64,000 nt of DNA, from assembly GCF_040938485.1 (NCBI RefSeq), contig NW_027270984.1:1240001-1304000 (forward strand), in the 5' to 3' direction. This document shows positions 34,785 through 52,186 of this stretch, one piece after another; the first letter of the stretch is position 1; each line of letters starts with the position of its first letter. A program made the translations under genes and the position numbers. The notes beneath the pieces were generated by a model. That model made no database searches. It saw only the letters and a program-made list of their open reading frames with translations, and was not told the origin of the DNA. Source of the stretch: Diadema antillarum. Its lineage: Eukaryota.

Positions 34785-35441
34785 AGTAGTATAGGTGTAC
34801 GTATAGCGTCATAAAAATATGATTCATATTTCTATTGTTCTAGAACAAAAGAAATATGAAAAGACAAAAGAATTATGAATTATGAAATATGGATTATGAT
34901 ATGATTTATGATAAAAAGATGGATTATGATATGATTTATGATAAAAATATGGATTATGATATGATTTAAGATAAAAAGATGGATTATGATATGAATTATG
35001 ATAAATCGATGAATTATGATAATAGATATGAATTATGGATATTTACATAACAATAGAAATTGGAAAGAACAAAAGAATGTATGAAATATGAAAAATGAAA
35101 GATGAATATTCATGAGATATGAATTATAGATATGAACGATGAATGATGATTATGAAATATGAATATTTATGGATCGATATGAAATATGAAGAATGAATTA
35201 TGAAAAATATGCTATTGTTTTAAGAATCCGCATCATTGTTTCATCATATTCTTTTGTTCTCACATCGAGAGATATTTTCGAAGGCAATGGTCGAAATGGT
35301 CATAATGACGATTGCAATCGTATTCATGACATTTGTTTGTTTGATGACGTCACTCCGACAAGTTCGGACCTGTCCTCTGACCAACGCTCGCCCGATCGAT
35401 AACAAAAGAACTTTAAAAATAAAGAAATACATAAAAATGGG
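34785..35441 (+). repeat. left terminal inverted repeat (657 bp)
   Basis: reverse complement of 51529-52186; 5 differences by eye (34969, 35383, 35400, and one substitution plus one indel near 35420). Confidence 0.95.
34891..35005 (+). repeat. 30-bp tandem repeat inside the TIR (about 3.8 copies; mirrored in the right TIR)
   Basis: GGATTATGATATGATTTATGATAAAAA(G/T)AT at 34891, 34921, 34951 and partial at 34981. Confidence 0.9.
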
Positions 35442-35580
35442 ACTCGAGCCCGTGACGAGTTCGGACGTGCCCTCTGACCGCCGCTTGCGCAATCAAAGAC
35501 AAAAGAACTTATAAAATAAAGAAATACATAAAAATGGGACTCGAGCCCGTAACGAGTTCGGACATGCTCTCTGACCGATC
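35362..35580 (+). repeat. left subterminal ~97-bp repeats (3 copies)
   Basis: GTTCGGAC at 35362, 35459, 35556, each followed by CTCTGACC; AAAAGAACTT...AAAGAAATACATAAAAATGGG follows in the first two copies. Confidence 0.85.
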
Positions 35581-35713
35581 CTTGCACAATCACAGGGTAA
35601 TGTATACAAAATGGAGAAATACATAATGACAACAGAAATATTAAAAAGTATGACATCATCGCATAACTTTGGAAAGCGACGTACAGTTACTAAGAATAGT
35701 TTCGGAATGGGGA

Positions 35714-35720
35714 TATAAAA
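35714..35720 (+). promoter_or_regulatory. TATA box candidate for the PC4-like gene
   Basis: TATAAAA about 70 nt upstream of ATG 35788. Confidence 0.5.
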
Positions 35721-35787
35721 ACTCAGCTCCGAAAAGAACGGAGCATTCGAATACCCTGAAGGAATTGCTACGTGAAAAGCTGTCAAC

Positions 35788-36303
35788 ATGTTCTCATACT
35801 ACGGCAATGCCTACGATACTCGTTCAACGGCAGCACTGCCAGGCATGGATAACGAAGCCAGCAGAGGTGAGCTTCAAATAGACACTATGGCCAACTCCGA
35901 ACCAGTCGGGATAATGGAACAAGAACAACGTCGCGATCGTGATTTTAGGGGAGATGGCAATACAATCAACGCGTCTGGAAATGGACAAATTGACAAAGAC
36001 AAGACAGCGTCTGGAACCGACGAGGCAGGTGTCTGGAACACGAGCAAAATGGGTACAAATTGTGATGGCTACGACGTATGCAAATTCCCCATTAACACAA
36101 CGCCGAAGAAAATCAGATACGTAACGGTCAAAGTCTTCAAGGAAAATGTCTACGTTGATATCCGAGAATTTTTCACATTGGGAGGCAAGCATTTTCCAAC
36201 CAAAAAAGGCATAACGCTACCGGTCGACGATTTCAAAAAGCTGCAAATGATATCAAAGATCCTGAACGCTGCTATCTACCGTGCACGCTACCAACAGCGC
36301 TGA
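35788..36303 (+). CDS. PC4/Sub1-like ssDNA-binding protein with acidic N-terminal extension (171 aa)
   Basis: C-terminal RYVTVKVFKENVYVDIREFF...PTKKGITLPVDDFKKL matches the PC4 domain signature. Confidence 0.85.
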   Translation: MFSYYGNAYDTRSTAALPGMDNEASRGELQIDTMANSEPVGIMEQEQRRDRDFRGDGNTINASGNGQIDKDKTASGTDEAGVWNTSKMGTNCDGYDVCKFPINTTPKKIRYVTVKVFKENVYVDIREFFTLGGKHFPTKKGITLPVDDFKKLQMISKILNAAIYRARYQQR

Positions 36304-36582
36304 AATTGTCCCGATAGCCGTCAACTAGACCGTCTGATTCAACGTCAACTAAGAGAGATCCATAATGGGAATGCGTCGAAGGAGGTGCAAATGCTTTCAA
36401 AGAGTTTGGACACCGCCTTCTACTGTCCGGCAGTGAGCGTTACATACAACACAACGTGTCTGGACTTGACCTTTGATGCGTCGAGACTGTTTCTTTCAAA
36501 CATCATCAACTTCGTCTAGCCTTATTATGTGAAGGGACTATCCATTATGAAACGTAATCCTTCATTCCTTTGAAGTTTTGCC

Positions 36583-36590
36583 TATAAATA
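36583..36590 (+). promoter_or_regulatory. TATA box candidate for pPolB
   Basis: TATAAATA about 85 nt upstream of ATG 36672. Confidence 0.5.
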
Positions 36591-36671
36591 GGGAAATCAC
36601 CATCAACTAAGCAGTTTCGAGAGCCAACTCGAGGGATTGTGGTCATGCCGTTGCTCTTATAGCTGAGAACC

Positions 36672-39600
36672 ATGTCTTCTCAAGAGTCACAGTCTCATTC
36701 TCAGAGAACCTCTAATTTCATTTCACAGTTAAAGAGTTTGTTGAGTTCAGCGTATAATTCGTTAACTAGCTCGCAAGTACAGACAACCGTCGACAAGGCC
36801 GTTGCCGAACTACAAGGCCATCTCCATTCTCCAGCCACTCCAAAGGGTCGAGAAAAGTCATCCTCGGTAAGTGAACGCAATACTAATCATTCGAGAGATG
36901 TGGGTTTAGATAATAGTAGGAGCGGGAGTTCCCCGAATGTCCCTGCCAACCAAGATATTCCGGGCCCGTCTCATCACCAAGGCCCTGGCACAAATTACAA
37001 AAGAAATCCTCGCGATGCACCGCCACCGCCGGTGAATTACTTTTCTTCGAGCGATGAGGAAATGTTTTCTTCTCCCGAAACGAAAAAGAATTCAAATAGG
37101 AAACGTTCAGGAAGCATTGGGAATCAGAGAGGGGGGAACGTGCAAAAGAGGGGTAAAAAACGGGTCAAGAGATCTTCCGAGAAAAATGAAGAGGGAAACC
37201 CAAAAAAGAAAAAATCGAAAGAAAATCACATTCCAGTGGAAGAGAATGAAGAAGACATGTTTTCGGACATTTCAGCTTCACTTCCCTCATCCCCCACTTG
37301 GGAATTCATAGATCAAAGAATGTCTAAGAGATTTGGGGTGAGGGAAGTGTGGTATGACTTCAAAGCAAACACAAAAGGTATTTCTAACATACGGGATATG
37401 ATTGACTACATTCGCTCATCGCTCGATGAACTGAAATCCTTACTCGTGTCTAACACTTCAGAGCGCGATTACATGCGTCTCGTATTAGTTTCGGAACAAC
37501 TCAACGTTCCGATCGCTTTCCCTTGGGCCCTGGTAAGAGATTTTGACGTAGAACTGATTCTAGAACGAATCGAGCAAGTGTTGAATAGCAACCAAGACTT
37601 TTTCATCAGTCCGGGATTCACTATAAGATTCCATCATGTGGTGAATCCCGCCGGTGGACGGGCGTCGAAATTCGACGGCCTTCCATCGCGTCTCGCGGCC
37701 CTCAAGAAGAAGTCGATAATCACAGTGCCGAGGGACGAAGATAACCTATGCTTTGCAAAGGCAATTGTCATTGCAAAACTGCGAAAAGAAAACGATAGGA
37801 GATACAGACTGTGGTCAAGAAATGACCGTAATACCACGACAAGACTCCGAAATGAGGCGCGGGAATTACACAGGTTGGCAGGGGTACCTGAGGGAGAAGT
37901 AGATCATTCACAGTATGACTCCTTTCAAAAAGTGCTCCTTCCAAAGTACAAACTGGTCATTTATAGAGGACGATATGAAGAAGCGTTAATCTACAGCGGT
38001 CCTCAGGCTTCTGATACCATTTATCTCTATCTGTCAGACCGTCATTACGACGTGGTTGCCAATCCATCGGCGTTCCTGTGCTCCAAATTTGTTTGCGACG
38101 AATGTCACGAAACATATCGCGATCCCAGATATCACGAGTGTTGCCACATGTGTCGCGATTGTCAATCGACCGATTGTGATCGCGATAGCTTTGGTGAAAC
38201 CGATCGCACGCTAGTATGCGAGAAATGTAACATGACGTTTCTAACCGTGAAATGCTTTCGAGCACATACTGTGAAATTATTCAACGGTAAAACAGCTTGT
38301 CAGAGGAATTTCAAATGTAACAAATGCAACAAGGTCTTTGACACGGATCTTGTTGATGGCGATTCCAAGAAACACAATTGCAACGAAATGAAATGCAATG
38401 TTTGTAAGCTTGTGGTCGACGGAAGGTATCACGATTGCTACATGCAAGTGACGAAAGAGAGTCCCTTCCACTCAAAAAACGTCAAGAAAAGTGAATCAAA
38501 CCCTCCTCAACAAGATCAAAAGTGTGAAAGTTCTGAAAGTGACTCGCAGTCCCAAGACAGAAAAGCTAAGAAATCTCCTACCAAGTATATATTCTTTGAT
38601 TTTGAGTGTACTCAAGAGACAGGATTACACATACCAAATTACGTGCACGCAACATGGGAATGCACGAATTGCATGGATAGGGAAATGTCGGCAGACACCT
38701 GCTGCGAACGATGCGGCCCTCCCGAAGACCGTGCCATAACATTTCAGGGAGCGAATACCCTTGATCTTTTCACAAACTGGTTGTTTTCTATGGAAAATCA
38801 CAACTCGGTAGCAATCGCACATAACTCAAAGGCGTATGATTCGTATTTCTTACTAAACAAACTAATAGAACAAGGGATCGAACCCCACGTAGTGATGAAT
38901 GGCGCTCAGATCATAAGTCTCGAAACACGGGAGCCAAAAATTAAGGTTAAAGACTCTTTAAATTTCTTTCAGATGCGGTTGGCAAAACTGCCCAAAACAT
39001 TTGGCTTGCAGGAAATGAAGAAAGGTTATTTTCCCCATTTTTTCAACACTCCCGATAATGCCAATTATGTAGGATCACTGCCAGACAAACGTTTCTATGG
39101 CGTGGATTCCATGATGAAAGCAGACCGAGAACAGTTTAATGCTTGGTACGATGAGCTCGCGCTAGCCAATTATGTCTTTAACTTTCAGGAGGAAATAAAA
39201 GCCTACTGCGAGAGTGATGTCAATATCTTGCACCAAAGCTGCAAGATATTTAGAAGACACTTCAAAAGTGTGAGCGCAACAGAGGCTAATCCCGAAGGAA
39301 TAGATCCATTCATGCGCTGTCTGACGCTTCCCAGCGCGTGCAATCTTTTGTTTCGAACGAACTACCTTAAGCCCAAGACAATCGCGCTCATTCCCCAGGA
39401 AGGGTATGGAAAGGGGAAAAGACAGTCCTCCTTAGCCGGAGAGTGGCTTCATTTTGAGGCACAGCTTTCAGGATTTCACATTCGACATAGTTTCAATGGT
39501 GGGGAAAGAAAAGCACACGGACGTTTCGTAGATGGCTATGCCGAAAAAGATGATGAAAAACATGTTTGGGAGTTTCTCGGGTGCTTTTATCACGGGTGTC

Positions 39601-41180
39601 GCGAATGTTACGGTCCCAGTGTCGAAAACCCAAAGCTAGGCAAAGCAATGGGTGTACTGTTTAATGAATCCATGAAACGTCTTGATGCGCTCAAAGAGAA
39701 TGGATATATTGTACACTATATTTGGGAATGCGAATGGAAACAATTGCGCCAAATGGCTGATGTACATCCACACATTGCACACCTTCAAATGGCTTTTAAT
39801 CAACAATTAAATCCACGTGACTCGTTCTATGGCGGGAGAACTGGAGGGTGTTCGCTCTTCTACGAGGCGAAGCCCGAAGAAAAAATCCTTTACTATGATT
39901 TCACCAGTCTTTATCCCTTTATCAATAAGTTCGGCAAATATCCTGTCGGCCATCCCAGAATTATCTATTCTAACTTCCCTTCACTGTCTCGAATTTTTGG
40001 ACTCGTCAAATGTAAAATATTACCTCCTAGACGTCTGTTTCATCCAGTGCTCCCCCATCGCTCAGGGGGTAAACTTACTTTCCCTCTATGCAGGACCTGT
40101 GCAGACACCTTGAATCAGGGGCCCTGCAAGCACGCAGATAGGGAGCGTGAGTTAGAAGGCGTGTGGGTATCGGAGGAACTGAAAAAAGCTGTAGAGATGG
40201 GGTATACACAACTCCGAATGATCGAAGTATGGCACTTTGACAGGTATACAGTGTACGATCCCAAAACAAGAACGGGAGGACTGTTTGCGCAGTATATAGA
40301 CAGCTTTATGAAAATAAAGCAGGAAGCCTCAGGCTACCCCGCCCATGCCAGTACTGAAGAAGAACGTGAAAAATACATTCGAGATTATTTGGCCCATGAG
40401 GGAATTCAATTAGACTCTAAAAACATCGCGAAAAACCCCGGTTTACGCGCCATTGCCAAGGGCATTGTTAATGTGCTGTGGGGGAAATTTGCTGAGAGAC
40501 CAAATCTGAAACAAACGCGCTTTGTCAAAACCAGCGCTGAGTTGTTAGATTTCTTAAAGGATCGCACTATCGAATTACAAGACATTCTCGTTCTAAACGA
40601 CGACATGGTAGAAATTCATTTCAATCAAGCCGAAGGCTTCGTGGACCACAACGTCAACACAAATATCATAATAGCCAGTTTCACGACGGCATTGGCGCGA
40701 CTGAAATTGTATTCTGTCTTGCAGAGGCTGAACGATAGGGTCTTGTATTACGACACTGATAGTGTAGTCTTTAGAACAGACCCAACAGTACAACATCACG
40801 ACCCCAAAACCGGCGATTTCGTTGGTGACTTGACGGATGAACTTGGTGAAGGCGAGTTCATTCAAACCTGGCTTTGCGGTGGTCCTAAGAACTATAGTTA
40901 TCGCACCAACAAAGGCAACACCGTGTGTAAGGTGCGTGGATTTACCTTGAACGAGGCAAACTCCCTCGTTATAAACCATGACTCTATGCGCGAATTGATA
41001 CAAGGTGAACCGGGATGTCTGAAGACTATTGTGGAAAATAGAATTCTCAGAGACGTAAAAAGCAAGTCCGTGTACACTTCCGAGAGAAAAAAAGACTACA
41101 GGGTAGTCTTCACGAAACGAGTTAGATTACCAGGTGGCACGACACTGCCTTATGGACACGCGGACATTCCTCGCTTATAA
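36672..41180 (+). CDS. pPolB: protein-primed family B DNA polymerase (terminal protein, OTU-like, Zn-finger, exonuclease, nuclease-like insert, polymerase), 1502 aa
   Basis: ExoI FFDFECTQ, ExoII HNSKAYD, ExoIII YCESD, motif A YDFTSLYP, motif B KGIVNVLWGKF, motif C YYDTDS; uninterrupted ORF. Confidence 0.97.
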   Translation: MSSQESQSHSQRTSNFISQLKSLLSSAYNSLTSSQVQTTVDKAVAELQGHLHSPATPKGREKSSSVSERNTNHSRDVGLDNSRSGSSPNVPANQDIPGPSHHQGPGTNYKRNPRDAPPPPVNYFSSSDEEMFSSPETKKNSNRKRSGSIGNQRGGNVQKRGKKRVKRSSEKNEEGNPKKKKSKENHIPVEENEEDMFSDISASLPSSPTWEFIDQRMSKRFGVREVWYDFKANTKGISNIRDMIDYIRSSLDELKSLLVSNTSERDYMRLVLVSEQLNVPIAFPWALVRDFDVELILERIEQVLNSNQDFFISPGFTIRFHHVVNPAGGRASKFDGLPSRLAALKKKSIITVPRDEDNLCFAKAIVIAKLRKENDRRYRLWSRNDRNTTTRLRNEARELHRLAGVPEGEVDHSQYDSFQKVLLPKYKLVIYRGRYEEALIYSGPQASDTIYLYLSDRHYDVVANPSAFLCSKFVCDECHETYRDPRYHECCHMCRDCQSTDCDRDSFGETDRTLVCEKCNMTFLTVKCFRAHTVKLFNGKTACQRNFKCNKCNKVFDTDLVDGDSKKHNCNEMKCNVCKLVVDGRYHDCYMQVTKESPFHSKNVKKSESNPPQQDQKCESSESDSQSQDRKAKKSPTKYIFFDFECTQETGLHIPNYVHATWECTNCMDREMSADTCCERCGPPEDRAITFQGANTLDLFTNWLFSMENHNSVAIAHNSKAYDSYFLLNKLIEQGIEPHVVMNGAQIISLETREPKIKVKDSLNFFQMRLAKLPKTFGLQEMKKGYFPHFFNTPDNANYVGSLPDKRFYGVDSMMKADREQFNAWYDELALANYVFNFQEEIKAYCESDVNILHQSCKIFRRHFKSVSATEANPEGIDPFMRCLTLPSACNLLFRTNYLKPKTIALIPQEGYGKGKRQSSLAGEWLHFEAQLSGFHIRHSFNGGERKAHGRFVDGYAEKDDEKHVWEFLGCFYHGCRECYGPSVENPKLGKAMGVLFNESMKRLDALKENGYIVHYIWECEWKQLRQMADVHPHIAHLQMAFNQQLNPRDSFYGGRTGGCSLFYEAKPEEKILYYDFTSLYPFINKFGKYPVGHPRIIYSNFPSLSRIFGLVKCKILPPRRLFHPVLPHRSGGKLTFPLCRTCADTLNQGPCKHADRERELEGVWVSEELKKAVEMGYTQLRMIEVWHFDRYTVYDPKTRTGGLFAQYIDSFMKIKQEASGYPAHASTEEEREKYIRDYLAHEGIQLDSKNIAKNPGLRAIAKGIVNVLWGKFAERPNLKQTRFVKTSAELLDFLKDRTIELQDILVLNDDMVEIHFNQAEGFVDHNVNTNIIIASFTTALARLKLYSVLQRLNDRVLYYDTDSVVFRTDPTVQHHDPKTGDFVGDLTDELGEGEFIQTWLCGGPKNYSYRTNKGNTVCKVRGFTLNEANSLVINHDSMRELIQGEPGCLKTIVENRILRDVKSKSVYTSERKKDYRVVFTKRVRLPGGTTLPYGHADIPRL

Positions 41181-41292
41181 AGACCTCAATGTGTCTAATT
41201 GCCAATCATTCGCTGTTTATACATTGTCGCAGAAGGTGGTACTTTCTCATCAGCTCTGTACCTACCGCTGGCATTGTCGTTGCTAGGAAATC

Positions 41293-41529
41293 ATGGATAA
41301 GTCGCGCGCATCATATATGTCCACAGTGCTCAGAAATGTACTGAAAAGTACCAATGCTGGTACAAATGTATTTTGTTTGGCGCTTTTTGTATTTCTCTTC
41401 TTTCTATTGTTTTATCTCGAGTCTTTGCTCACTAGAGATGCCCATTTGTCAAATGGAACGGATGGGTTTGATTTTTCCTTAAATAAAACTGACGTTATCC
41501 CCGATGTCAGTTCTTTCGCGGGCGCTTGA
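41293..41529 (+). CDS. candidate small single-pass membrane protein (78 aa)
   Basis: strong Kozak context ATCATGG, hydrophobic VFCLALFVFLFFLLFYL, two sequons (NGT, NKT) after the helix. Confidence 0.4.
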   Translation: MDKSRASYMSTVLRNVLKSTNAGTNVFCLALFVFLFFLLFYLESLLTRDAHLSNGTDGFDFSLNKTDVIPDVSSFAGA

Positions 41530-41765
41530 TTGCAGCGCATTATACCGTTATGTTGCTCTTGAATATACCGCGTAGTTTTAACAGTTTGCTTCATATCGTC
41601 GTCTTATTCTTTTAAGAAACTTAACTGAACCCACATCTCACGTATGATAGAGTATTCCGTTCACTTACTTCGTTTGACATTTGCTCTAATTTCATTTACA
41701 GAACTTAATATCTTATTGTGTTATTCATATAGCTATATTTGTACTATTTGATGCCGTTAATTACA

Positions 41766-42407
41766 ATGGATGCCCGACTCAAACATAGTTTTTCATGTAT
41801 GGTGGTCGGACCGAGTTTTTCAGGGAAAACCGAATTCGTGAAAAGATTACTGAAAAATGCCTCGGAAATGATCGATCAACCTCCTCGCAAAATTATATGG
41901 TTTTACGGGGAGTATCAACCGTGTTACGCGACAATGACACGATCCTTTCCGAATATTGAATTTCATGAAAATTTACCAGCAGATTTCAATGATTTGACCG
42001 ACCCCTCCCGACCAGTGTTATTTGTCATCGATGATTTAATGGATGTGGCTGGTGATGACAAGAGAGTAGCCGCCTTGTTTACTAAAGGTTGTCATCATAG
42101 AAACGCGAGCGTTATTTATATCACTCAAAATCTCTTTCATCGTGGAAAGGAGTCTAGGACTATTTCATTAAACACGCAGTACTACGCTTTATTCAAAAAT
42201 TGTAGAGACAAACAACAAATTGCTTGTTTAGCTAAACAGATGTATCCCTCGAAAACAAAGTTTTTTCAAGAGGCATTTATGGACGCCACAGCCGATAAAT
42301 GGGGTTATTTATTCGTAGACCTTAAACCAGACACGCCGGAAGAATTTCGTCTCAGAACGAAAATATTTCCCGGTGAAGTTCAATATGTATATGTTCCTAA
42401 GATATAA
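41766..42407 (+). CDS. A32/FtsK-like genome-packaging ATPase (probable start MDARLKHSF, 213 aa)
   Basis: Walker A GPSFSGKT, Walker B LFVIDDLM, and TKGCHHRNASVIYITQNLF typical of Polinton ATPases. Confidence 0.95.
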   Translation: MDARLKHSFSCMVVGPSFSGKTEFVKRLLKNASEMIDQPPRKIIWFYGEYQPCYATMTRSFPNIEFHENLPADFNDLTDPSRPVLFVIDDLMDVAGDDKRVAALFTKGCHHRNASVIYITQNLFHRGKESRTISLNTQYYALFKNCRDKQQIACLAKQMYPSKTKFFQEAFMDATADKWGYLFVDLKPDTPEEFRLRTKIFPGEVQYVYVPKI

Positions 42408-42446
42408 ATTGTCGCGTTCGTGTATTAAGTCATTTATTAGTTAAAA

Positions 42447-42791
42447 ATGTCGCGCCGAGTGAAGACCCACGCAGTCCTGCTCAAGACCCTCGCACACTGC
42501 TCTCCTGATCAACGGAAACTTCTCATCAAGACAGCTAACAAGAACTTCATTGACGCCATCTGTGAATGTGTTTTGAACGTGATCTGCGGTAATGTCAAGC
42601 TGTCGCAATCCCACAAGAAAACTTTGACTAAGCACAAGCGAAAACTCCGTAAATTAGCGGATCGTCGTACATCTCTGGCAGAGAGAAAACGAATCTTAAA
42701 CCAACGCGGAGGATTCATTGGTCTCATTGCCAGGTTGATCACGCCTGTACTCGGAACTCTCGCTTCTAACCTCTTTGCATCGCCAAAGTAG
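42447..42791 (+). CDS. basic core protein with QRGG|F site and amphipathic tail (adenovirus pX-like; probably Maverick PM), 114 aa
   Basis: K/R-rich body, C-terminal NQRGGFIGLIARLITPVLGTL; position directly after the ATPase. Confidence 0.8.
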   Translation: MSRRVKTHAVLLKTLAHCSPDQRKLLIKTANKNFIDAICECVLNVICGNVKLSQSHKKTLTKHKRKLRKLADRRTSLAERKRILNQRGGFIGLIARLITPVLGTLASNLFASPK

Positions 42792-42818
42792 ACACTGTAT
42801 AGAGGTACCGCGTTGATA

Positions 42819-43586
42819 ATGGAGAATGCGCGCAAGATGGTGCTTGTGCCACAAACTATGCTTCATTCTCTCAAAAGTCAATCTTCATCACCTACAGAGC
42901 AGCGAATCAACGAATTGGACGATCAGATTCGTTCGGTGTTGGACAGGCCCGATCTACCAGAGTATGACAAGGCGTTGTTGTATTCGCAATACTTACAGCG
43001 GTTTTTGAAAGCGACGGACAACGTTAAGAAGCCATTGTCTATTGAAGTCGTTAGCGACAGCTCAAGAGACAATGACAGCACGCATCTAGTAACTCATGGA
43101 CAGAGGGTCGCGCCAAAATCTGAGGACGCAGTGGAGCGTGACATCTTGCAGCACGTGCCTAAGAATTTTGTGAAAAGAGCTTCGCAGTTGCTGGAAAAGA
43201 TGAAAAGGTGCGACGATGTGGGATGGACGGACAAAGGGGAGCTGATTGTGAGCGGGGAAAGTGTGCCTGGCAGTAACATTTGCGACTTAATGTACGACAT
43301 TTTCAGAGAGCGAAGTGGTTATATTCCTACTGGTAGTGAACATTTTATTCGTGCGCTGGCTCGTTTGAACATTCCAGAGACTGCGTTGACCAATCTCAGC
43401 CGACGTGACCAACTTCAACGTGTTAAGAGGGGGAAAGATTTGGAGACCCCGATTCATCGTCGTTTAGATTCTCCAGACCCCAAAATGTACACAACCCCTA
43501 CTACAACTAAAAGTTATACACGTACAAGGCGTACAAGAGCTAGTGATGCTAATGGTTCTCAAACCCCAAAGTGGCAATCTTTTTAA
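42819..43586 (+). CDS. conserved Polinton protein of unknown function (probably PW), 255 aa
   Basis: KMVLVP start, DKALLYSQYLQRF, WTDKGELIVSGESVPGSNICDL motifs that I recognise from Polinton accessory proteins; family name is my recollection. Confidence 0.75.
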   Translation: MENARKMVLVPQTMLHSLKSQSSSPTEQRINELDDQIRSVLDRPDLPEYDKALLYSQYLQRFLKATDNVKKPLSIEVVSDSSRDNDSTHLVTHGQRVAPKSEDAVERDILQHVPKNFVKRASQLLEKMKRCDDVGWTDKGELIVSGESVPGSNICDLMYDIFRERSGYIPTGSEHFIRALARLNIPETALTNLSRRDQLQRVKRGKDLETPIHRRLDSPDPKMYTTPTTTKSYTRTRRTRASDANGSQTPKWQSF

Positions 43587-44368
43587 AATACGGCTTAAAC
43601 GGTATGACCACAATCCTCGTTAACCCGAGCTGTTCTCGTTAATTCGTGTAATGATTTTATTGTATGTTAATTTACTACTCTTCTATTTCAAACAGTTATG
43701 TACAATTTTAAATAGTAGCCCTTACCATTATGATCTGCGTGTTGATCTAGGTGGGTGTTGAAGTACGCCATCGATGTTGCGTATGGGGTGATATGAAAGT
43801 GTGTACACAAGCATTTACATACTTAATATGTATCATTATATTTTACGAACGATGATTTTTTGATTGTATTAACGTTAACATCGTTACATATCCCCAACCA
43901 ATTATTTCATCAGGTGACCCGCAATGTGTATATAAGATTGTACGGTCTATGTTCAGATGTGAAGGAGTGTATACATACATAATATTCTGTTTGAATGTAT
44001 TTGAAATTTTGATGCTAGCTGTTCTTTTGAATTTGTCCGCATGATATAGCGATTGACTATACTATCTTAACGTTTCTCCACTTCAACATTTCATCGTCTG
44101 AACATTTCGACTAGTTGCTATGTAAATATTGTAAATATAAGTTCGTGTGACGTTTGATTTTATCTGTGGTGTTTACCGAATGTGTCATACATTTTATCTC
44201 CTGGCGTAGTTGTACATAATATGTCTTACTTCATGAAACGATGTAAATAGTCAAATCCTGCCTGGTTTATGCATTATTACATTCAGTGGTGAAAGTAGTT
44301 GTTTTTATTATTATTCGTAGTTAATTCCATAAAGACCGTCATATTGTACATATATCCACCACTTCGAC

Positions 44369-44478
44369 GTTTCGTCGATTCGTCATTTTGTCATTTCGTC
44401 ATTTCGTCATTTCGTCATTTCGTCATTTCGTCATTTCGTCATTTCGTCATTTCGTCATTTCGTCATTTCGTCATTTCG
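44369..44478. repeat. 8-bp tandem repeat (ATTTCGTC)n, 10 perfect units at 44393-44472
   Basis: direct reading; explains the periodic FVISSFRH ORF. Confidence 0.95.
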
Positions 44479-45105
44479 CTGTTTTAAATCTGTGCATGTA
44501 ACGCATGCAAATTTCTTTTTTTTTAATGTCTGTTTACCTAGAATTAATAACTTTGACGAAACGGAAATACACTGTAAAATGTCTCACGCAGATTCTGCAG
44601 ATTGATGACTACATCACCTCAATGGTTTATAAGTTGTTAATTATTCTTTCATCACCATGTATGATTTAAGCCATGCTTGAACATCGAAACATAATTGAAT
44701 AATGTATTGTATTTTTTATATGAGGAATAGTTCTTTACGTATCCAGTGGAAATGTATATAGTTTGTTCGTTGCACGGTGTAATGATTTTTTTCTCACAAT
44801 CACAAAACGTAGAAGGAAGCAAAGAAAAACAAGTACAACAAGGAGTAATTTATTTACATATTCATAGTCTGTTGTTTTATTGGAGAAAATAAAACGGGTA
44901 CCACGTACAATATTCTTACGATACAAAACGCACTCGTTACATCTTATTTTTGTTTTGTCCTGTGTGATATGTGTTATACAGCGTGACTGAGGAAAAGAGA
45001 AGCGAGAAAGAAAACGAAGAGCGAAAGAGAAAATGAGACATATACTCGTAACGAAAATAACAAAGTGTGTATTACTATGAAGAACGAAACCCAGCCCAAG
45101 TTTAA

Positions 45106-45140
<35 letters not shown>

Positions 45141-45338
45141 TTACCTAATTTTACAAAGTATTCAAGCGGTTGTTACGCTAGGTACGCTAACCTAAGTAAT
45201 ATATGGTCTATGAATTGTAAATGATAATATATTCCATTGGTAACAAACTGTCACAATCACTCAACGTTTCGACATAAAGGTACAAACTTAATTCTCTTAT
45301 TTTCAAACTAGCTTTCCCAGACATGAAAGAACATATAT

Positions 45339-45471
45339 NNNNNNNNNNNNNNNNNNNNNNNNNNNNNNNNNNNNNNNNNNNNNNNNNNNNNNNNNNNNNN
45401 NNNNNNNNNNNNNNNNNNNNNNNNNNNNNNNNNNNNNNNNNNNNNNNNNNNNNNNNNNNNNNNNNNNNNNN
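45339..45471. other. assembly gap (133 N) inside the Polinton
   Basis: run of N next to TA-rich sequence. Confidence 1.
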
Positions 45472-45587
45472 AGGCTTGCACATACGATATATACAAATTA
45501 CTACTAAGTTAAATACTGTTAGATATCTAGCAATCCACATCAAGAGAGAAGTTTACACTACGTTATACACGCTATTACAATATCTTC

Positions 45588-46109
45588 TTACAAACTATCG
45601 AAGCTACGTGCGATTTGTAATAGAGTAAAAGATGTATCATGAACACGATGGGAAACATCAGAACGTCGATTAAACCAATCATTCACTCTCTTATCATTTC
45701 TCGTATAATCCTTGCCAAACACATTTAATACACTTCGAGTTGTTTGACCCCCTACTCGTTTCGTCACGTAATAGATACAATATTGTCCGCAAACTGTGGA
45801 TACAGTTCCTTGTAGCCGTTTGGAATTAGAGGACCATGCCGAGGCATTATTGTCCAAAAACTTTACAAAGTCAAGACTGTAAGTTAAGGGTTCATATCCG
45901 TAAGAGTCAAAGAATTCGCCTTTTCCGTTGCAAAAGTAGAAAGCCACCCAGTGTGTTCCTGGTTTATCGCTAGGATCGGTATTCGCGATGAAGCATTGCT
46001 TCGCCCCACTAATTGATCGCGGTAGACAATTTGACGCATATACTCCTTTGAAATAGGGCTTGACAATAGGATCGTTCTCTAAGAAACGTTGAATCTGCGA
46101 TGTATCCAT
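45588..46109 (-). CDS. PRO: adenain-like cysteine protease (173 aa)
   Basis: NTDPSDKPGTHWVAFY (His), FFDSYG (Asp), LQGTVSTVCGQYC (Gln, Cys). Confidence 0.95.
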   Translation of the reverse strand: MDTSQIQRFLENDPIVKPYFKGVYASNCLPRSISGAKQCFIANTDPSDKPGTHWVAFYFCNGKGEFFDSYGYEPLTYSLDFVKFLDNNASAWSSNSKRLQGTVSTVCGQYCIYYVTKRVGGQTTRSVLNVFGKDYTRNDKRVNDWFNRRSDVSHRVHDTSFTLLQIARSFDSL

Positions 46110-46152
46110 AGTCGATTAGAATATTTCGGCAGTCGGTTGTCCGGAAGAGGTT

Positions 46153-47484
46153 TTATTGGTAATCGTAGATGATGTTTCTGCTTTTATCAATCTGAATCAG
46201 TCCTTGTCCTTCCGAGTAGACGATACAGTTGACGGTGTTTGGAATGGCCACGTCGAATTGTAGCTCTAAGCGCAGATTTCCTTGCTTGATGAGATTCAAG
46301 TGACATCCGTCAGATAGGTCGGGCGTAAGGTCGAATGCAAAAAGGGTATAACCTTCGCAGTATTCTTCTCGATTGATGTTAATTCCCTTGTCTACAAACA
46401 GTCGGTTGGTTCCCATGAATAGTGAATTGTAAGCGTGAATGTAACTTTGTCCAGCTCCCGCTGCAAAGCTAGGACGTAATGGTCTCATCGGCACCGTTTC
46501 TCCGTCAATAGTGAGGGAGATGAAGTTGAGGCGTAAATGTTTAAAGTTGAAGGGGTTCTTGCCAAAAGTACCGTTAAAGGCGTCTGTGTCAACGAATCCT
46601 ACGACCACCCGATTTGGTAACTGTCCGTGAAATAGATTGTCTTTATTAATCGACATGCTTCCTGCAGGAATGGAAAAGGACTTCACGTCTACTTTGTTGA
46701 CGGGGTATTTCGCGGTTGTCTTCTCCAAGGCCTTGGCGTGGTTTAACATGATGGTAGGACTGGTCTTTACTCTGCGAACGTAGAGGGCAGCAGATTCTAT
46801 TTTAATTTTATATCGGGCATTCTCCGTCGAAGACAGAAGACAAAATGCGTCTTTGCTACGATTTAACTTGATTTTCAAATCAACCCCCGGGAGTAACAGT
46901 CTTTCTTGAAAAAAAATGTCGGCGTAAATCGGACCAAGTAGAGAAAGTAATTTACTCTCGACGATGAATCCATGTCTTTTCGCCAGACCGGGATTAGCTT
47001 CTGCAGAGCTTGCCAGCGGGTTAACGACATCCATTTTCCCCGCTTTGTCCTTGTAATATAGCTGTTGAGTGAGTTGAGACTCTTTGGTCTCTCCTCCATA
47101 GTGCAGCAGAGATTCGATGTACGCTCTGTAAGGGTATGTATTCGACGGCTGAGACACTAGTTTTTCATTGAGCATGATATCAACTTGTGCAAAGAGAGAT
47201 GGGAGAAACAGGTTTACGGGACCAACTGGGGCATCAGCTGGTAAAGCCGTGTTATCATTGTTCGTAACTTTGACTGTCACTTGAAGCATGGTCTGAGAGA
47301 GGTCCAAGTATTCTTCCGACGTGCCGGACACGTTGAATTCAATGGGCCCTTCATCGGTGATGCTGCTAACGGGGTGATATTCTACCCATGGTCCTTTGAC
47401 GATGCTCATTTGAGTGTGTGGTACCGTGAACAAATCCAATTCGGACTTGCAGCAGACATCGCTCTTGTCGTGTAGAAGCGCCAT
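46153..47484 (-). CDS. PY: double-jelly-roll major capsid protein (probable start MALLHDKS, 443 aa)
   Basis: KSELDLFTVPHTQMSI, PIEFNVSG, LFSQ-like LFAQVDIMLN, YPYRAYIESLL, NPFNFKH, GYTLFAFDLTPD motifs of Polinton MCP. Confidence 0.95.
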   Translation of the reverse strand: MALLHDKSDVCCKSELDLFTVPHTQMSIVKGPWVEYHPVSSITDEGPIEFNVSGTSEEYLDLSQTMLQVTVKVTNNDNTALPADAPVGPVNLFLPSLFAQVDIMLNEKLVSQPSNTYPYRAYIESLLHYGGETKESQLTQQLYYKDKAGKMDVVNPLASSAEANPGLAKRHGFIVESKLLSLLGPIYADIFFQERLLLPGVDLKIKLNRSKDAFCLLSSTENARYKIKIESAALYVRRVKTSPTIMLNHAKALEKTTAKYPVNKVDVKSFSIPAGSMSINKDNLFHGQLPNRVVVGFVDTDAFNGTFGKNPFNFKHLRLNFISLTIDGETVPMRPLRPSFAAGAGQSYIHAYNSLFMGTNRLFVDKGININREEYCEGYTLFAFDLTPDLSDGCHLNLIKQGNLRLELQFDVAIPNTVNCIVYSEGQGLIQIDKSRNIIYDYQ

Positions 47485-47536
47485 GTTCAGCAAAGACAGC
47501 AAGGAGTGTATGAGACTGGTAAACGAATAGTCCGAA

Positions 47537-47977
47537 TTAATCGAAGATGTCGCGCAAGCGAGCTCTTTTCGCTGGAGAATTTCGAGACCGAATGATACGC
47601 TTCCTTCCTCGCCTCCTTCTTTTAACTCTTCCTACAACTACTAATCGCGCTCCTCCAGTCTGATTCCCAATTTTTTTCTTTACTGCTCGAACAGTCTTTG
47701 AGGCCAGGTGTTTTCCCGCCCGAGCCACATTTTTTCTAGTTGCGCTTTTAAAAGATTGTCCGTTGATGGTGTCCTGAACAATGTTCATGCCTGTATGCAT
47801 AGCTTCTTTTCCCAAAGCAACAGCCCCTCTTTTTAAGAGAGGAGTTGCGACTTTGAAGAGCCCCTTCACCAGACTACCCAGCCCGTGTCCTCTCTGCATG
47901 GATGCCCCGCGGAAGACGGGTAATCCCGAGCCATATTGGTCGTGAAAAATCCTTGCCGGTGCGCGAAATACCACCAT
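47537..47977 (-). CDS. core/lytic precursor protein (probably Maverick PZ), 146 aa
   Basis: QYGSGLPVFRG, QRGHGLGSLVKGLFK amphipathic segment, Arg-rich C-terminus; lies between the minor and major capsid genes. Confidence 0.85.
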   Translation of the reverse strand: MVVFRAPARIFHDQYGSGLPVFRGASMQRGHGLGSLVKGLFKVATPLLKRGAVALGKEAMHTGMNIVQDTINGQSFKSATRKNVARAGKHLASKTVRAVKKKIGNQTGGARLVVVGRVKRRRRGRKRIIRSRNSPAKRARLRDIFD

Positions 47978-48012
47978 AGTTGGACGTATCGCTGTGTAAA
48001 TTTAGCGTCCAG

Positions 48013-48774
48013 CTAGTTCGTAGAGCGCTCTCTAAAGTGTAACTTCACGATCACTTTCCCGCGTTCAAATGGTACCACTTCACCCGATTCGGTTGTTAAT
48101 ATAATCTCTATCGTTTCAAAATTGTAAAGCTTAAGAGGGACGTAATGCGGAGTGATATAGGTATTGACGATATTATCGCGATCCTTGTCCGGAATGACTG
48201 CTATCGTCCTCAGTAAAGGTACAGCAGCGTCACCTACGTGTTGAAACTGAACGATATCAGAATAGACATAAAATGTATGAAATTTCATGTGTACATCCAT
48301 TGGCATGGGACTCAGTGTTGATTCCGTGAGATGGCATTCCCCTTCAAACCCGAGCATCATAGCCAAACCACAGGGAATGAGGAGCGCCGTATTTCCTTCT
48401 AATCGGATGAAACATTTTCGTTGGGTCCTCTTGTAATAAAATGTGATGCTTTTACGTAATTTTCTCCGGAACTGTTCGTTGATCGAGTCAATGAGTTCCT
48501 CTCCAGAATTATAATATCCCGCAGGAATCTCAATTTTTTTCATCAATGGAACAGCGTCGTCCTCTACTTCATTATCGTAAATAGTGAGGGTGTTGTTATC
48601 ATGTCGTACATTATACCACGTGCACTGAAATTGAACTTCTGCCAACCCCACCTCGTAATCTTCGTTGAGTGAGAGAGGTGCGTGAAGCCGCGTTGTAAAC
48701 TGACACGTTTTGTTATTTGGATAGTACGACATGGAACTATTACTGGGCAGCGTCACGTAAAATTGAGAAGCCAT
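48013..48774 (-). CDS. PX: single-jelly-roll minor capsid (penton) protein, 253 aa
   Basis: FYVTLPSNSS...YPNN, YEVGLAEV, FYVYSDIV...VGD...PLLRTI, HYVPL, GKVIVKLHFR. Confidence 0.93.
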   Translation of the reverse strand: MASQFYVTLPSNSSMSYYPNNKTCQFTTRLHAPLSLNEDYEVGLAEVQFQCTWYNVRHDNNTLTIYDNEVEDDAVPLMKKIEIPAGYYNSGEELIDSINEQFRRKLRKSITFYYKRTQRKCFIRLEGNTALLIPCGLAMMLGFEGECHLTESTLSPMPMDVHMKFHTFYVYSDIVQFQHVGDAAVPLLRTIAVIPDKDRDNIVNTYITPHYVPLKLYNFETIEIILTTESGEVVPFERGKVIVKLHFRERSTN

Positions 48775-48841
48775 GTTCGATCAGCCTCTTCTCCTTTGTT
48801 CAAAGCGAAGAATGATAACGAGAGTAACGTGAATCGTGTTT

Positions 48842-49933
48842 TTAACGCGGAGTTAAGTGTCGAACCCAACTATCAAATTCTTTGCCATACCCTGACCAAC
48901 GAACTAGGTATTCTTTCTGCCCATTGCGCATGCGCGTGCGTAAAACCTTGTCCACGTTGTAAGTAGTCTCCTTGTCTTTCGAAACTCTTATCAATTCCCT
49001 TTCATAGAACGTACCCTTCACTCGTTCCCCGTTGTAATCCTTTATTCTGTAGACAGGTACCCTCCTATTGACGCGGGAGCTGATTGTAAAGACCTCCCTC
49101 GAAAAATTTGCTTCGTAACCCTTTTCGAACTTTAGTTTGCTTTTACTAATACGAACTTGATCTCCGATTTCATACTTGAATCGTGGAGCTGTACGCTTCT
49201 TCCCTCGCATTGCCCTACCGTAGAGACTTTTTATGGCACGCTTTTGATTCTCAATATTCACGTCTTTTGGTTTCATGCCAATACTAGAATGAATGGTGTT
49301 GTTATAGCCTTTGACCAAATCTTTTATTACACCGAGATACCTGTAAGTGTTTTTGAATGTGAAGAAGCGCCACATTTTTGTTCGCAGCGTTCTATTGAAT
49401 CGTTCAGCAACGCTGGCTTTGGTTTCATTTTCTGTTGTGTAGAAGTGAATGCCTTCTTTCTCGAGATATTTCTGAAAATGTCTGTTTGTGAATTCCGAAC
49501 CTTTGTCTGTATGTAGCATTACAGGCACTCGGCCCTCTTTCAAGATGCTTTCGAATGCCCCGACAATGTCTTTTGATTTTTTGTTTTTTAAAGGAACCAC
49601 CCAAGCATATTTCGACAGTACATCTATACACGTCAGTAAGTAGCGATAACCATTATTAAACCTTTTCAAATTTTGAACATCTACAAGATCAGCCTCCCAG
49701 ATTTCGTCGATTCCTCTCACTTTCACAACATTTCTCTTAAATGTCTTTCTCGCCGGTGCGTGCATTGAATACGCATCTTGTTTCGTTAACCAGTCTCTGA
49801 CACCCTGCAAGCTCGCTTTTTCAGTTTCCACCTCTCTCACCGCATTCCACAACTTACTGACACCACCGAAACTAGCTGGATGTTGAGGATCGTAATAGAT
49901 TTCCTCTAACGCTCTCTCAAATGAATTAGACAT
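48842..49933 (-). CDS. INT: retroviral-type DDE integrase with C-terminal chromodomain (probable start MSNSFE, 363 aa)
   Basis: IYYDP...SFGG, WEADLVD, LHTDKGSEF, KASVAERFNRTL; chromodomain YNVDKVL...EYLVRWSGYGKEFDSWV. Confidence 0.96.
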   Translation of the reverse strand: MSNSFERALEEIYYDPQHPASFGGVSKLWNAVREVETEKASLQGVRDWLTKQDAYSMHAPARKTFKRNVVKVRGIDEIWEADLVDVQNLKRFNNGYRYLLTCIDVLSKYAWVVPLKNKKSKDIVGAFESILKEGRVPVMLHTDKGSEFTNRHFQKYLEKEGIHFYTTENETKASVAERFNRTLRTKMWRFFTFKNTYRYLGVIKDLVKGYNNTIHSSIGMKPKDVNIENQKRAIKSLYGRAMRGKKRTAPRFKYEIGDQVRISKSKLKFEKGYEANFSREVFTISSRVNRRVPVYRIKDYNGERVKGTFYERELIRVSKDKETTYNVDKVLRTRMRNGQKEYLVRWSGYGKEFDSWVRHLTPR

Positions 49934-50120
49934 TATTCGTCTCAGCAACCACACACTGCAGAAGCAAACATCAGAAATGGCATTCCTTTCACATTGCAAT
50001 GACATAAAAGGCATCAATGATAGACAAGGTAACGAGTAAAAAAAATCATTTGAAAATGAAACGCATCATTTATTGTACACGCATACACACAGTGCAGCGA
50101 ATTTCGTTGCTTGAATCAAT

Positions 50121-51044
50121 TCACATTCTATTAACATCTACATTCCATACATTATACAACATATACAGACAAAAATGTAAAACGTATCGCGACATTAGTC
50201 CAACAGTCATTTTCGGAGCGTGTTCCGACCAGCGCACTTTGTAGCGTTTGAGTCCTTCCACGAATTGCGCGCGAAATTCCTCTTTCCGCTCGTCCGGTAT
50301 GCAGGCATATTGGTAGATGTTGACAAAATAGCATAGAGCCATCAGCGAACGTTTGTACTTGTTGGGATGATTGGGGTTCTCTATACAATTTTTGAGCAGG
50401 GCCTCTATACAATCGTCGAACCTCTCATTGCCTCGAAGCTTGATTCGTCGCACACGGGAAAATTGTTCCTCGCTTGCAATTGTCCGACATGCGCGTAAGA
50501 TTGTCTCGGTGTCTACGGCGTGAAAGTCGGAAGGAAATGTGTCCTTTATCACCGTTAATAGCAGTCGTTCGTCTAAAGCACGTTCCACTGAGGGTCCGTC
50601 AAGACAATGTCGGGCAGGCCGGTCTCGAGCCCCAAGGCCCTGTAGACCACTCTCACAGCGGCCTCTATCCCCTCCACGTGTCTCCCTATGTTGACTCTTC
50701 TTTGTTCCAGCTGCTGTTGAGTCTCTCCCCTCAGAATAAATTTGATGTACTCCAGGAAAAAACCGCACTCGACGAGATCTGGTCTCATCCAGAGCACCCT
50801 GCCAACGTAAGGGTACACTCTCTCCACAGTCATTGGGTCCAAATGATGAACCGCCTGGAACACTTTGCGCTGTGGATCTTCGGGAGTACCGTCTATTGGA
50901 GAATCTGGCACGTTTTGCACCCGTTTCAAGACTTCGATGAGAGTTAGATACTCCGTCAACATCAGCAAGTCCACCTTCTCCACCGTCCTCTGCATTTCGG
51001 GACACCAGGTGTTGGCGATATTCGGCTGAGACATTCTGTAACAT
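50121..51044 (-). CDS. accessory protein with C-terminal helical domain resembling the Bcl-2 fold (307 aa from ATG 51044, or 345 aa from ATG 51158)
   Basis: open frame; the last ~150 aa look protein-like, while the N-terminal part overlaps the 153-aa ORF and looks overprinted; start uncertain. Confidence 0.55.
   Translation of the reverse strand: MLQNVSAEYRQHLVSRNAEDGGEGGLADVDGVSNSHRSLETGAKRARFSNRRYSRRSTAQSVPGGSSFGPNDCGESVPLRWQGALDETRSRRVRFFPGVHQIYSEGRDSTAAGTKKSQHRETRGGDRGRCESGLQGLGARDRPARHCLDGPSVERALDERLLLTVIKDTFPSDFHAVDTETILRACRTIASEEQFSRVRRIKLRGNERFDDCIEALLKNCIENPNHPNKYKRSLMALCYFVNIYQYACIPDERKEEFRAQFVEGLKRYKVRWSEHAPKMTVGLMSRYVLHFCLYMLYNVWNVDVNRM
50573..51034 (-). CDS. accessory alpha-helical protein of unknown function (153 aa, MSQPNIANTW...)
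   Basis: ATG with A at -3, amphipathic helical composition, first substantial gene inside the right end. Confidence 0.65.
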   Translation of the reverse strand: MSQPNIANTWCPEMQRTVEKVDLLMLTEYLTLIEVLKRVQNVPDSPIDGTPEDPQRKVFQAVHHLDPMTVERVYPYVGRVLWMRPDLVECGFFLEYIKFILRGETQQQLEQRRVNIGRHVEGIEAAVRVVYRALGLETGLPDIVLTDPQWNVL

Positions 51045-51179
51045 GTGATGCTCTCGGAAGGTTTCAAATTGAAATGTGTCCCTCTCGCATGTTCTTCGAG
51101 TTTTTATTCTTTTGCTTTGCAAAGGACGCCACCATCTCTTTGAATATGTATGAGGCATCTATTGTTTTATGCAGGACGA

Positions 51180-51610
51180 GTCCGAACCCGTCACTGGCTC
51201 CAGGTCCAGTTTATGTATTTCTTTATTTAAAAATTCTTTTGTCTTCGCTCGCGTACAAGCGTGGGTCAGAGGACAAGTCCGAACTTATCGTGAACTTGAG
51301 GTCCAGTCTTATGTATTTCTTTGTTTTTCTAGTCTTTTGTCTTTGAGTGTGCGAGCGTCGGTCTGAGGACAAGTCCGAACTTATCGTGAACTTGAGGTCC
51401 AGTCTTATGTATTTCTTTGTTTTTCCAGTCTTTTGTCTTTAAGTCCCCGAGCGTTGGTCAGTGGACACGCCCTGACTTTTGTCTTCGATTGCGCAAGCAT
51501 TGCGCAAGCGTCGGTCAGAGGACACGCCCCCATTTTTATGTATTTCTTTGTTTTTTAAAGTTCTTTTGTTTTCGATCGGGCGAGCGTCGGTCAGAGGACA
51601 GGTCCGAACT
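51180..51610 (-). repeat. right subterminal ~96-97-bp repeats
   Basis: GTCCGAAC at 51180, 51277, 51373 and 51602 with ATGTATTTCTTT...CTTTTGT blocks; degenerate copies near 51465 and 51520. Confidence 0.85.
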
Positions 51611-52186
51611 TGTCGGAGTGACGTCATCAAACAAACAAATGTCATGAATACGATTGCAATCGTCATTATGACCATTTCGACCATTGCCTTCGAAAATATC
51701 TCTCGATGTGAGAACAAAAGAATATGATGAAACAATGATGCGGATTCTTAAAACAATAGCATATTTTTCATAATTCATTCTTCATATTTCATATCGATCC
51801 ATAAATATTCATATTTCATAATCATCATTCATCGTTCATATCTATAATTCATATCTCATGAATATTCATCTTTCATTTTTCATATTTCATACATTCTTTT
51901 GTTCTTTCCAATTTCTATTGTTATGTAAATATCCATAATTCATATCTATTATCATAATTCATCGATTTATCATAATTCATATCATAATCCATCTTTTTAT
52001 CATAAATCATATCATAATCCATATTTTTATCATAAATCATATCATAATCCATCTTTTTATCATAAATCATATCATAATCCATATTTCATAATTCATAATT
52101 CTTTTGTCTTTTCATATTTCTTTTGTTCTAGAACAATAGAAATATGAATCATATTTTTATGACGCTATACGTACACCTATACTACT
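51529..52186 (-). repeat. right terminal inverted repeat (658 bp)
   Basis: reverse complement of 34785-35441, ends ...CCTATACTACT. Confidence 0.95.

Follow-up and report, generated by a model that had tools for sequence, protein, structure and literature searches.

Leaky-scanning overlaps are a known kind of gene arrangement. The two E1B proteins of adenovirus are reportedly translated from one mRNA by the use of different AUGs (Bos et al. 1981). The Bcl-2 homologue of E1B is the short protein, which is made from the first AUG. A closely spaced pair of out-of-frame AUGs is also used for p69 and p206 of TYMV. Another such pair, for p26 and p27 of PEMV2, is described in PMC6294492. Passages of PMC9964350 on E1B describe two proteins on overlapping frames, one of which is a Bcl-2 homologue, and a beta-helix in the 55K protein is mentioned in the text of PMC11071296. 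In yeast, competition between out-of-frame AUGs lying within about 17 nt of each other has been measured, according to PMC9743702.

Bcl-2 homologues have been reported from adintoviruses. In Starrett et al. 2021 (PMC8502044), Supplementary Fig. S2 contains a 'Bcl2' column beside Integrase, and section 3.2 treats the adintovirus Bcl2 homologues in one sentence, without overlap or translation. Both proteins of the pair described below have already been deposited for a relative, as 'Bcl2 [Strongylocentrotus sea urchin adintovirus]' (DAC81429.1, 288 aa) and as a 145-aa 'hypothetical protein' of the same virus. No published description of the overlap was found in the adintovirus and polinton literature searched, and it is not described in the parts of PMC11071296 and PMC6431247 covered; supplementary slides, drawn maps or the GenBank record may show it.

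The window analyzed here is a stretch of 64,000 nt from Diadema antillarum (assembly GCF_040938485.1, contig NW_027270984.1, positions 1,240,001 to 1,304,000). It contains a cassette in which a short ORF is overprinted by a longer frame that ends in a domain with a predicted Bcl-2-like fold. Sequence comparisons indicate that the overlap is a real dual-coding cassette conserved in adintoviruses. Both frames are probably translated from one unspliced mRNA on which ribosomes select either of two closely spaced AUGs, and the overprinted arm probably serves to keep the long frame running into the Bcl-2-fold domain.

The window proteins are homologous to the Strongylocentrotus adintovirus pair (27% identity in the domain and 50% in the short protein). 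The deposited pair is codon-compatible in the -1 frame over 139/139 positions, so the same overlap is implicit in that record. The window family is unlike that virus in that it reads CTG where the relatives start the long protein and has an ATG ahead of the short one. An earlier note on this DNA had compared the layout with E1B 19K/55K; the layout is alike, but the roles are swapped, since here the Bcl-2-like protein is the long one. The Bcl-2 domain of the cassette sits at the C-terminal end of the long protein, past the overlap, and both cassette models are helical. In E1B it is the short protein that is the Bcl-2 homologue, and the long ORF contains a beta-helix. No homology to E1B was detected by Pfam or PDB sequence searches. 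By analogy, the cassette most likely works like E1B in layout, yet is no E1B. The RNA-virus AUG pairs are similar in placing two nearby AUGs in different frames, for two proteins per RNA. The cassette is unlike them in being part of a DNA element transcribed in the nucleus and in having a long start that varies by lineage (-10, +20 to +32, or at the domain).

The element and its two-frame gene pair

The cassette is carried by a Polinton/Maverick element of the adintovirus type (Table 1). Two terminal inverted repeats (TIRs; the left one at 34785-35419), 635 nt long and 100% complementary, bound 17.4 kb; Polinton/Maverick elements have long TIRs and a size of 15-20 kb. Pfam searches identified both the protein-primed PolB (PF03175, E 6e-46) and the integrase with chromodomain (rve, E 8e-14; Chromo, E 4e-7) by which such elements are recognized. 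The packaging ATPase Pox_A32 was matched above its cut-off (E 2e-5), and the adenain protease Peptidase_C5 weakly (21.2 bits, cut-off 21.3). Two ORFs of 443 and 253 aa had no match in Pfam and are presumably 'hexon' and 'penton', labels given by size and position. The element is intact and present in many near-identical copies. The cassette is located on the minus strand, upstream of the integrase, and the named relatives of its proteins come from sea urchins.

Table 1. Features of the cassette and its element (positions in the window)
Feature	Position	Strand	Basis
Polinton/Maverick (adintovirus-like) element with cassette	34785..52186	.	TIRs; pPolB, A32-like ATPase, weak adenoviral protease match, rve integrase with chromodomain
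Right terminal inverted repeat	51552..52186	.	Cassette is the first gene pair inside the repeat
Short ORF, 153 aa, conserved helical protein	50573..51034	-	12 homologues at 44-63%; dN/dS 0.09 vs L076; no Pfam family; model pLDDT 53
Overprinted -1 frame arm of long protein, stop-free, low-complexity, R/G/S/P/E/K/Q-rich	50576..51044	-	56% RGSPEKQ, 20% hydrophobic
Bcl-2-like domain (predicted), 150 aa, moderately hydrophobic C-terminal helix, conserved D(V/L)NR-like end	50121..50575	-	AF2 pLDDT 80; structural matches; relative named Bcl2 (DAC81429.1); dN/dS 0.19 vs L076
Likely start of long (Bcl-2) protein, weak-context ATG 10 nt before short ATG	51042..51044	-	First ATG after predicted transcription start at about -45; in 26/26 located copies
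CTG where four relatives start the long protein (final base of one codon and TG of the next, the Trp codon of the short ORF)	51006..51008	-	Comparison with relatives
U_UUU_UUC heptamer, in phase with short ORF, not conserved, probably incidental	50756..50762	-	Sequence; absent in relatives with DNA
Long-frame GTG 13 nt before short stop	50586..50588	-	Closed-arm lineage L076 has ATG in G..G context there
Predicted TATA-like box AATAAAA, 74 nt before short ATG	51102..51108	-	TATAAA at -76 in L076, -71 in family B; function inferred
Predicted polyadenylation signal AATAAA between cassette and integrase	50069..50074	-	AATAAA ~50-70 nt past long ORF end in all three families with DNA

The layout proposed in the earlier note, a short ORF lying wholly inside a second open frame, holds at every coordinate on the minus strand. 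The long frame is open from 51158 to its stop at 50123-50121, with Met codons at 51158, 51044 and next at 50342. Two details required adjustment. The context of the short ATG, which had been called strong, has the favorable A at -3 and an unfavorable T at +4, and is adequate only. The domain does begin with a long Met-free stretch, but this comprises 77 residues (the first Met is residue 78) and not about 85.

All 40 scored DNA matches (from 104 candidates, the window itself included) are full length at 99-100%, so that one continuous ORF in sister elements, with a private indel in this copy, is ruled out. These near-identical copies give no evidence on selection. The 345-codon open frame was found in 42/47 full-length protein matches at 99-100%, and the other five have frames of 357, 310, 220, 220 and 176. 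Among 30 fetched loci, 26 were found by the seed of the script, and both frames, ATG 51044 and the heptamer are intact in 26/26. Homologue clusters contain both 307- and 129-aa forms, or 295- and 143-aa forms; gene callers appear to report the long ORF, or else the short ORF and a truncated Bcl-2.

Several variants of the cassette were also observed. In a single copy that is 90-95% identical (L077:1577-2389, G000:C633), a deletion has merged the Bcl-2 domain in frame with the greater part of the short ORF, and the resulting frame has 271 codons. A third cassette family (C) of ~30% identity (L074:1946-2916 and L075; G000:C662 and C303) looks degraded, being interrupted by stops and apparent frame breaks; its fetched flanks gave no match to an integrase, and it was excluded from the counts. 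Three of three examined inward-pointing pairs (G000:C895:882720-899205, C554:347196-359637 and C574:3372492-3387757) have undergone rearrangement: where the polB arm should be, they contain the right-hand ~3 kb a second time in inverted orientation (TIR, cassette and part or all of the integrase). The breakpoints differ in each, polB is all or nearly all missing, and the cassette is present twice, so copy counts do not equal insertion counts. These elements likely arose through template switching in linear DNA replication. Further inward-pointing pairs include about four in the window family, hereafter family A (C36, C66, C743, C475), and two in family B (C792, C1705).

Other parts of the element contain repeats and small ORFs. 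The stretch 51200-52100 holds short tandem AT-rich repeats within the TIR and 77-110 nt subterminal repeats between the TIR and the cassette, and related copies are present at the left end of the element. These repeats are possible origin or enhancer elements. A 114-aa ORF (42447-42791) with a faint Gasdermin_C match (E 0.059) and a basic 146-aa ORF (47537-47977) are probably the putative GasderminX and core-protein-like genes, respectively, of the Beta-class adintovirus modules outlined in section 3.2 of PMC8502044.

The Bcl-2-like domain and the short protein

The C-terminal domain is predicted to have a Bcl-2-like fold, a helical bundle round a central hydrophobic helix. It was modeled with AF2 from a 12-sequence alignment. 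A structural search of 48,161 chains with this model returned Bcl-2 family members at ranks 1-28 (Z 5.4-7.7), with the first unrelated row at Z 5.3, in agreement with the Bcl-2-like character suspected from the letters of the protein-like C-terminal part. The best Foldseek match was BAX (E 1.2), and Pfam and PDB sequence searches with the domain gave no match. The Z values under 8 are modest, so with the Foldseek value and the empty sequence searches the fold assignment rests on the consistency of moderate scores. A search of the ESM Atlas gave nothing usable (best 0.80). R75 and W115 are invariant in the alignment and may lie roughly at the places expected for the BH1 Arg and BH2 Trp. As to a possible C-terminal membrane anchor, the model has a helix at 122-143, and the best 19-residue hydropathy is only 1.11.

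Viral Bcl-2 homologues, including vaccinia F1L, deerpox DPV022, iridovirus GIV66, EBV BHRF1 and ASFV A179L, have the same helical fold as the model (Z 6.8-7.7, rmsd 3.3-3.6 A over 95-108 residues), with sequence identity of only 4-13%. The cassette protein differs from them in its overprinted N-terminal arm of 140-160 aa, and BH3 binding by it is putative. A gene model of Diadema setosum (P0035) fuses 83 aa of the Bcl-2-like domain to a hexon-like protein and is probably a gene-prediction chimera.

One of the 12 homologues of the short ORF is the 145-aa adintovirus protein mentioned above. The model of the short protein is poor and all-helical, and the fold search with it was uninformative (best Z 5.2). 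The short protein is the more conserved partner of the pair and matches no known family. From the figure label 'Adintoc5:Bcl2', the short ORF was considered as Adintoc5. Two Adintoc5 sequences in the supplement of PMC11071296 contain CxxC..HxC, which the short ORF lacks (compared by eye, unaligned); Adintoc5 is probably a different gene. The dN/dS values against L076, an 80%-identical lineage, indicate that both ORFs are under purifying selection.

Conservation of the overlap and the start of the long protein

A second family in the same genome (family B) is 49-50% identical in the short protein, 28% in the domain and 59-60% in the integrase, with synonymous sites saturated. The two frames have the same phase in family B, and a 295-codon open frame is present in 16/18 matches. 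In its -1 frame, five of the seven codons that precede the ATG at +32 are stops, and past that ATG there are none.

The overlap was also examined in relatives known as proteins, by a codon-compatibility test that determines whether one DNA can encode a given short and a given long protein in overlap (11 long and 15 short proteins, both offsets). No incompatible position was found for P0011/P0012 (143 positions; family B, a control with known DNA), P0002/P0039 (154), P0022/P0043 (139; the two deposited sea-urchin adintovirus proteins) and P0028/P0037 (142). Runs in non-partners were 41 at most. For three long proteins (P0007, P0003 and P0034) no partner emerged, with compatible runs never above 8, and the ~105-residue extension of P0007 was therefore not counted among the open lineages. 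Searches of viral and metagenome contigs for the relatives' DNA found none.

The window and four relatives, whose short proteins are 41-74% identical, thus keep the -1 frame open across the short gene. The modeled chances of such openness are 2.9e-4, 6.8e-6, 8.2e-5, 1.7e-4 and 2.5e-5 per lineage, with the codon usage of this element applied to every lineage; two of the cases, family B and the P0037 lineage, share 74% identity and so are only partly independent. A synonymous T before AA, AG or GA codons would give a -1 stop. The synonymous-site check suggested earlier found this T at 0/27 sites in the window family and 0/28 in family B, vs 23/84, 26/93 and 101/336 in the integrase, hexon and polB of this element, respectively, and 27/86 in the family B integrase (binomial p 9e-5 for the window family and 3e-5 for family B). 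The Bcl-2 domain of the window is itself low (4/32), and against that rate the depletion has p 0.027 only; the domain of family B has 11/31. The arms diverge faster (21-52% identity) than the short protein, as expected of a frame kept open under weak sequence constraint. In a short-protein tree of 14 rows, with arm state known for 6, open arms occur on either side of the deepest split (99/96), and the open state is therefore probably ancestral.

In four relatives the long protein begins at the E-W-C of the short protein (Glu-Trp codons). The DNA of family B has an ATG there, formed by the last base of the Glu codon and TG of the Trp codon, and a Trp-to-Cys variant retains it. In the window this site is CTG (51008) and a weak ATG is located at -10, with the frame open in between. 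ATG 51044 is missing from L076 and family B. The long starts of the five open lineages are all within about 35 nt of the short start. In 12/12 short homologues checked, the residue before W/C has a codon able to end in A; this was rejected as evidence of a start, being weak: such residues also occur in the window and in L076, where the DNA nevertheless reads CTG and TTG, respectively. The earlier statement that the domain lacks a start codon of its own is true locally, but the long frame has a start position common to four relatives, and L076 has an ATG 13 nt before the short stop. The position common to the relatives, and the ATG that the window has 10 nt ahead of the short one, make it most likely that translation of the Bcl-2 protein begins at a start codon of its frame, to which ribosomes come by leaky or competitive scanning.

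A TATA-like word occurs at -71 to -76 in all three families with DNA, and transcription may start ~40-45 nt before the short ATG, behind this putative box. Counted from that predicted start site, the starts of the long and the short protein occupy the first two ATG positions in both family A and family B, which fits the leaky scanning that had been listed first among the possible routes. The spacing of 51044 and 51034 fits the range of AUG competition measured in yeast. ATG 51158, which would start a 345-codon form, is located upstream of the predicted TATA box and outside the predicted mRNA, making that form unlikely.

In the single-copy lineage L076 the arm is closed by three TGA stops, and the long frame lacks an ATG close to where the short protein starts. 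This is in part the result that had been named as telling against the overlap; the other five lineages are open. About seven stops would be expected (p 0.034). The Bcl-2 domain of L076 is intact, and over 83 aa it matches a Diadema protein at 88% identity. Decay of an old insertion through loss of host CpG was rejected as the source of the stops: 11/11 genes are free of stops, and CpG observed/expected is 0.89-1.33 vs 0.38-0.46 in the host flanks, so L076 looks like a recent insertion from a working lineage. The domain can thus be made without the arm, and a second route must exist there. The long-frame ATG of L076 near the short stop has a strong G..G context, with four ATGs upstream of it; the window has GTG at that place. 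We read L076 as a start-site switch followed by decay of the unneeded arm, a case of one lineage and one codon that supports the arm as mainly a frame carrier. A single synonymous codon choice decides whether an ATG stands there, and what looks like compensation could therefore be coincidental. The cassette of L076 is far closer to the window (short protein 88%) than the adjacent integrase (64%) or polB (55%), and these identities suggest that it was exchanged between element lineages.

Proposed expression of the pair and rival readings

In the preferred reading, ribosomes on one unspliced mRNA would pick either of the nearby AUGs, giving the short conserved protein or the predicted Bcl-2-fold protein, the long front arm of which is likely disordered. 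In the window family, the weak ATG 51044 would give a minor 307-aa Bcl-2 protein and ATG 51034 the major short protein. The order is reversed in family B, where leakage past the first AUG would reach the second at +32. The main job of the arm would be to carry the frame from a 5'-proximal start codon to the Bcl-2 domain; the arm would thereby make a monocistronic scanning mRNA bicistronic and hold Bcl-2 output low. L076, without a long-frame ATG at the 5' end, no longer keeps the arm open and carries an ATG at the domain, and in this respect was counted in favor of the model; that its domain is intact behind a closed arm was counted against it. It is an even call whether, in adintoviruses at large, the ~145-codon overprinted arm is there to give the domain the use of a 5' start codon, the position of which shifts during evolution, lying mostly at the Glu-Trp codons, upstream of the short ATG in the window and at the domain in L076, with the arm then filling with stops.

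The arm might also have a function of its own beyond carrying the frame, as a disordered regulatory or interaction tail like the overlapped N-termini of other viral overprinted proteins. This is doubtful, though some constraint may act on its sequence. Between families A and B, divergence at fourfold sites is lower in the overlap than in the integrase (14/28 vs 56/73, p 0.015), and length and composition are similar in six long proteins. However, the comparison of A with L076 shows no reduction relative to the Bcl-2 domain (18/54 vs 20/46, p 0.31), the identity of the arms is low, their similarity follows from conservation of the short ORF, and one intact lineage lives without the arm.

Alternatively, the Bcl-2 domain could start just before the short stop, by termination-reinitiation or from a separate short transcript, leaving the open arm as a minor or vestigial isoform. 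The ATG of L076 at -13 from the stop, with its closed arm and selected domain, favors such a start, as do the Met of P0022 two residues before the stop position and the start of P0034, which is compatible with the last 3 codons of P0014. We nevertheless hold it unlikely. Family B has no long-frame ATG, GTG, CTG or ACG within 60 nt of the stop, the first domain Met of P0002 is 26 residues in, and P0023 has Val where P0022 has Met. None of the three families with DNA contains TGGGA, the calicivirus-type reinitiation motif, in the last 110 nt, and the stop-free arms would be left unexplained. The route used by L076 (reinitiation, separate transcript or splicing) may contribute in the window family as well, from GTG 50588.

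Splicing to an acceptor at the stop of the short ORF, the third of the routes proposed earlier, would remove most of that ORF and join a 5' exon to the Bcl-2 domain. GTGCTTTAG terminates on the TAG of the short ORF. CTTTAG is common to A, B and L076, a branch-like CTTGAC lies upstream in A and L076, and L076 has one moderate in-phase donor (3.2 bits). The best in-phase donors of A and B score only -1.8 and -0.3, respectively, of a possible 8.9 bits (on a crude matrix), and pyrimidines make up only 0.50-0.56 of the sequence ahead of the AG. In P0002/P0039 and P0022/P0043, two of the four other lineages tested, only TAA or TGA can serve as the stop, and an intron has no need to remain stop-free. 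Four sequencing runs, of a kind that may or may not be RNA, showed no junction within the cassette and carry no weight on splicing or expression. Splicing is very unlikely.

A programmed -1 frameshift at the heptamer, giving a fusion of the short ORF with the Bcl-2 domain, was the remaining proposed route and is now highly improbable. The heptamer is in phase and would enter the long frame, and its presence in all located copies is uninformative because these are near-identical. Family B and L076 lack it and lack any in-phase XXXYYYZ in the short ORF, and the RNA downstream, for which folding had been suggested as a check, folds no better than shuffles when pseudoknots are left aside (z +1.78 and +0.35). 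The long frame is open before the site as well, over 83-86 codons in five lineages (p 0.0007-0.011 each), and slippage at the heptamer cannot account for this.

That the -1 frame is open by composition or chance, with two non-overlapping domains alone of importance, is hardly credible: the low T count in the Bcl-2 domain of the window and the small number of stops in L076 point that way, but five lineages are open, each at a modeled p of 3e-4 or less, and in family B the domain is not poor in such T and the stops end exactly at the ATG.

The gene expression of Polintons and adintoviruses has barely been studied, and a conserved dual-coding cassette is now seen in the group. From its predicted fold and the behavior of viral Bcl-2 homologues, the Bcl-2 protein most likely delays apoptosis of the host cell during replication of the element. 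If the two-AUG model holds, the cassette would represent an adenovirus-E1B-like solution with swapped roles and would point to control of apoptosis by an actively spreading endogenous element. It would also provide a simple system for testing whether selection on an overprinted region can act mainly to keep it free of stops. If the start codon does migrate as proposed, these lineages would form a natural series of the upkeep and loss of an overprinted frame without sequence function in an endogenous DNA virus.
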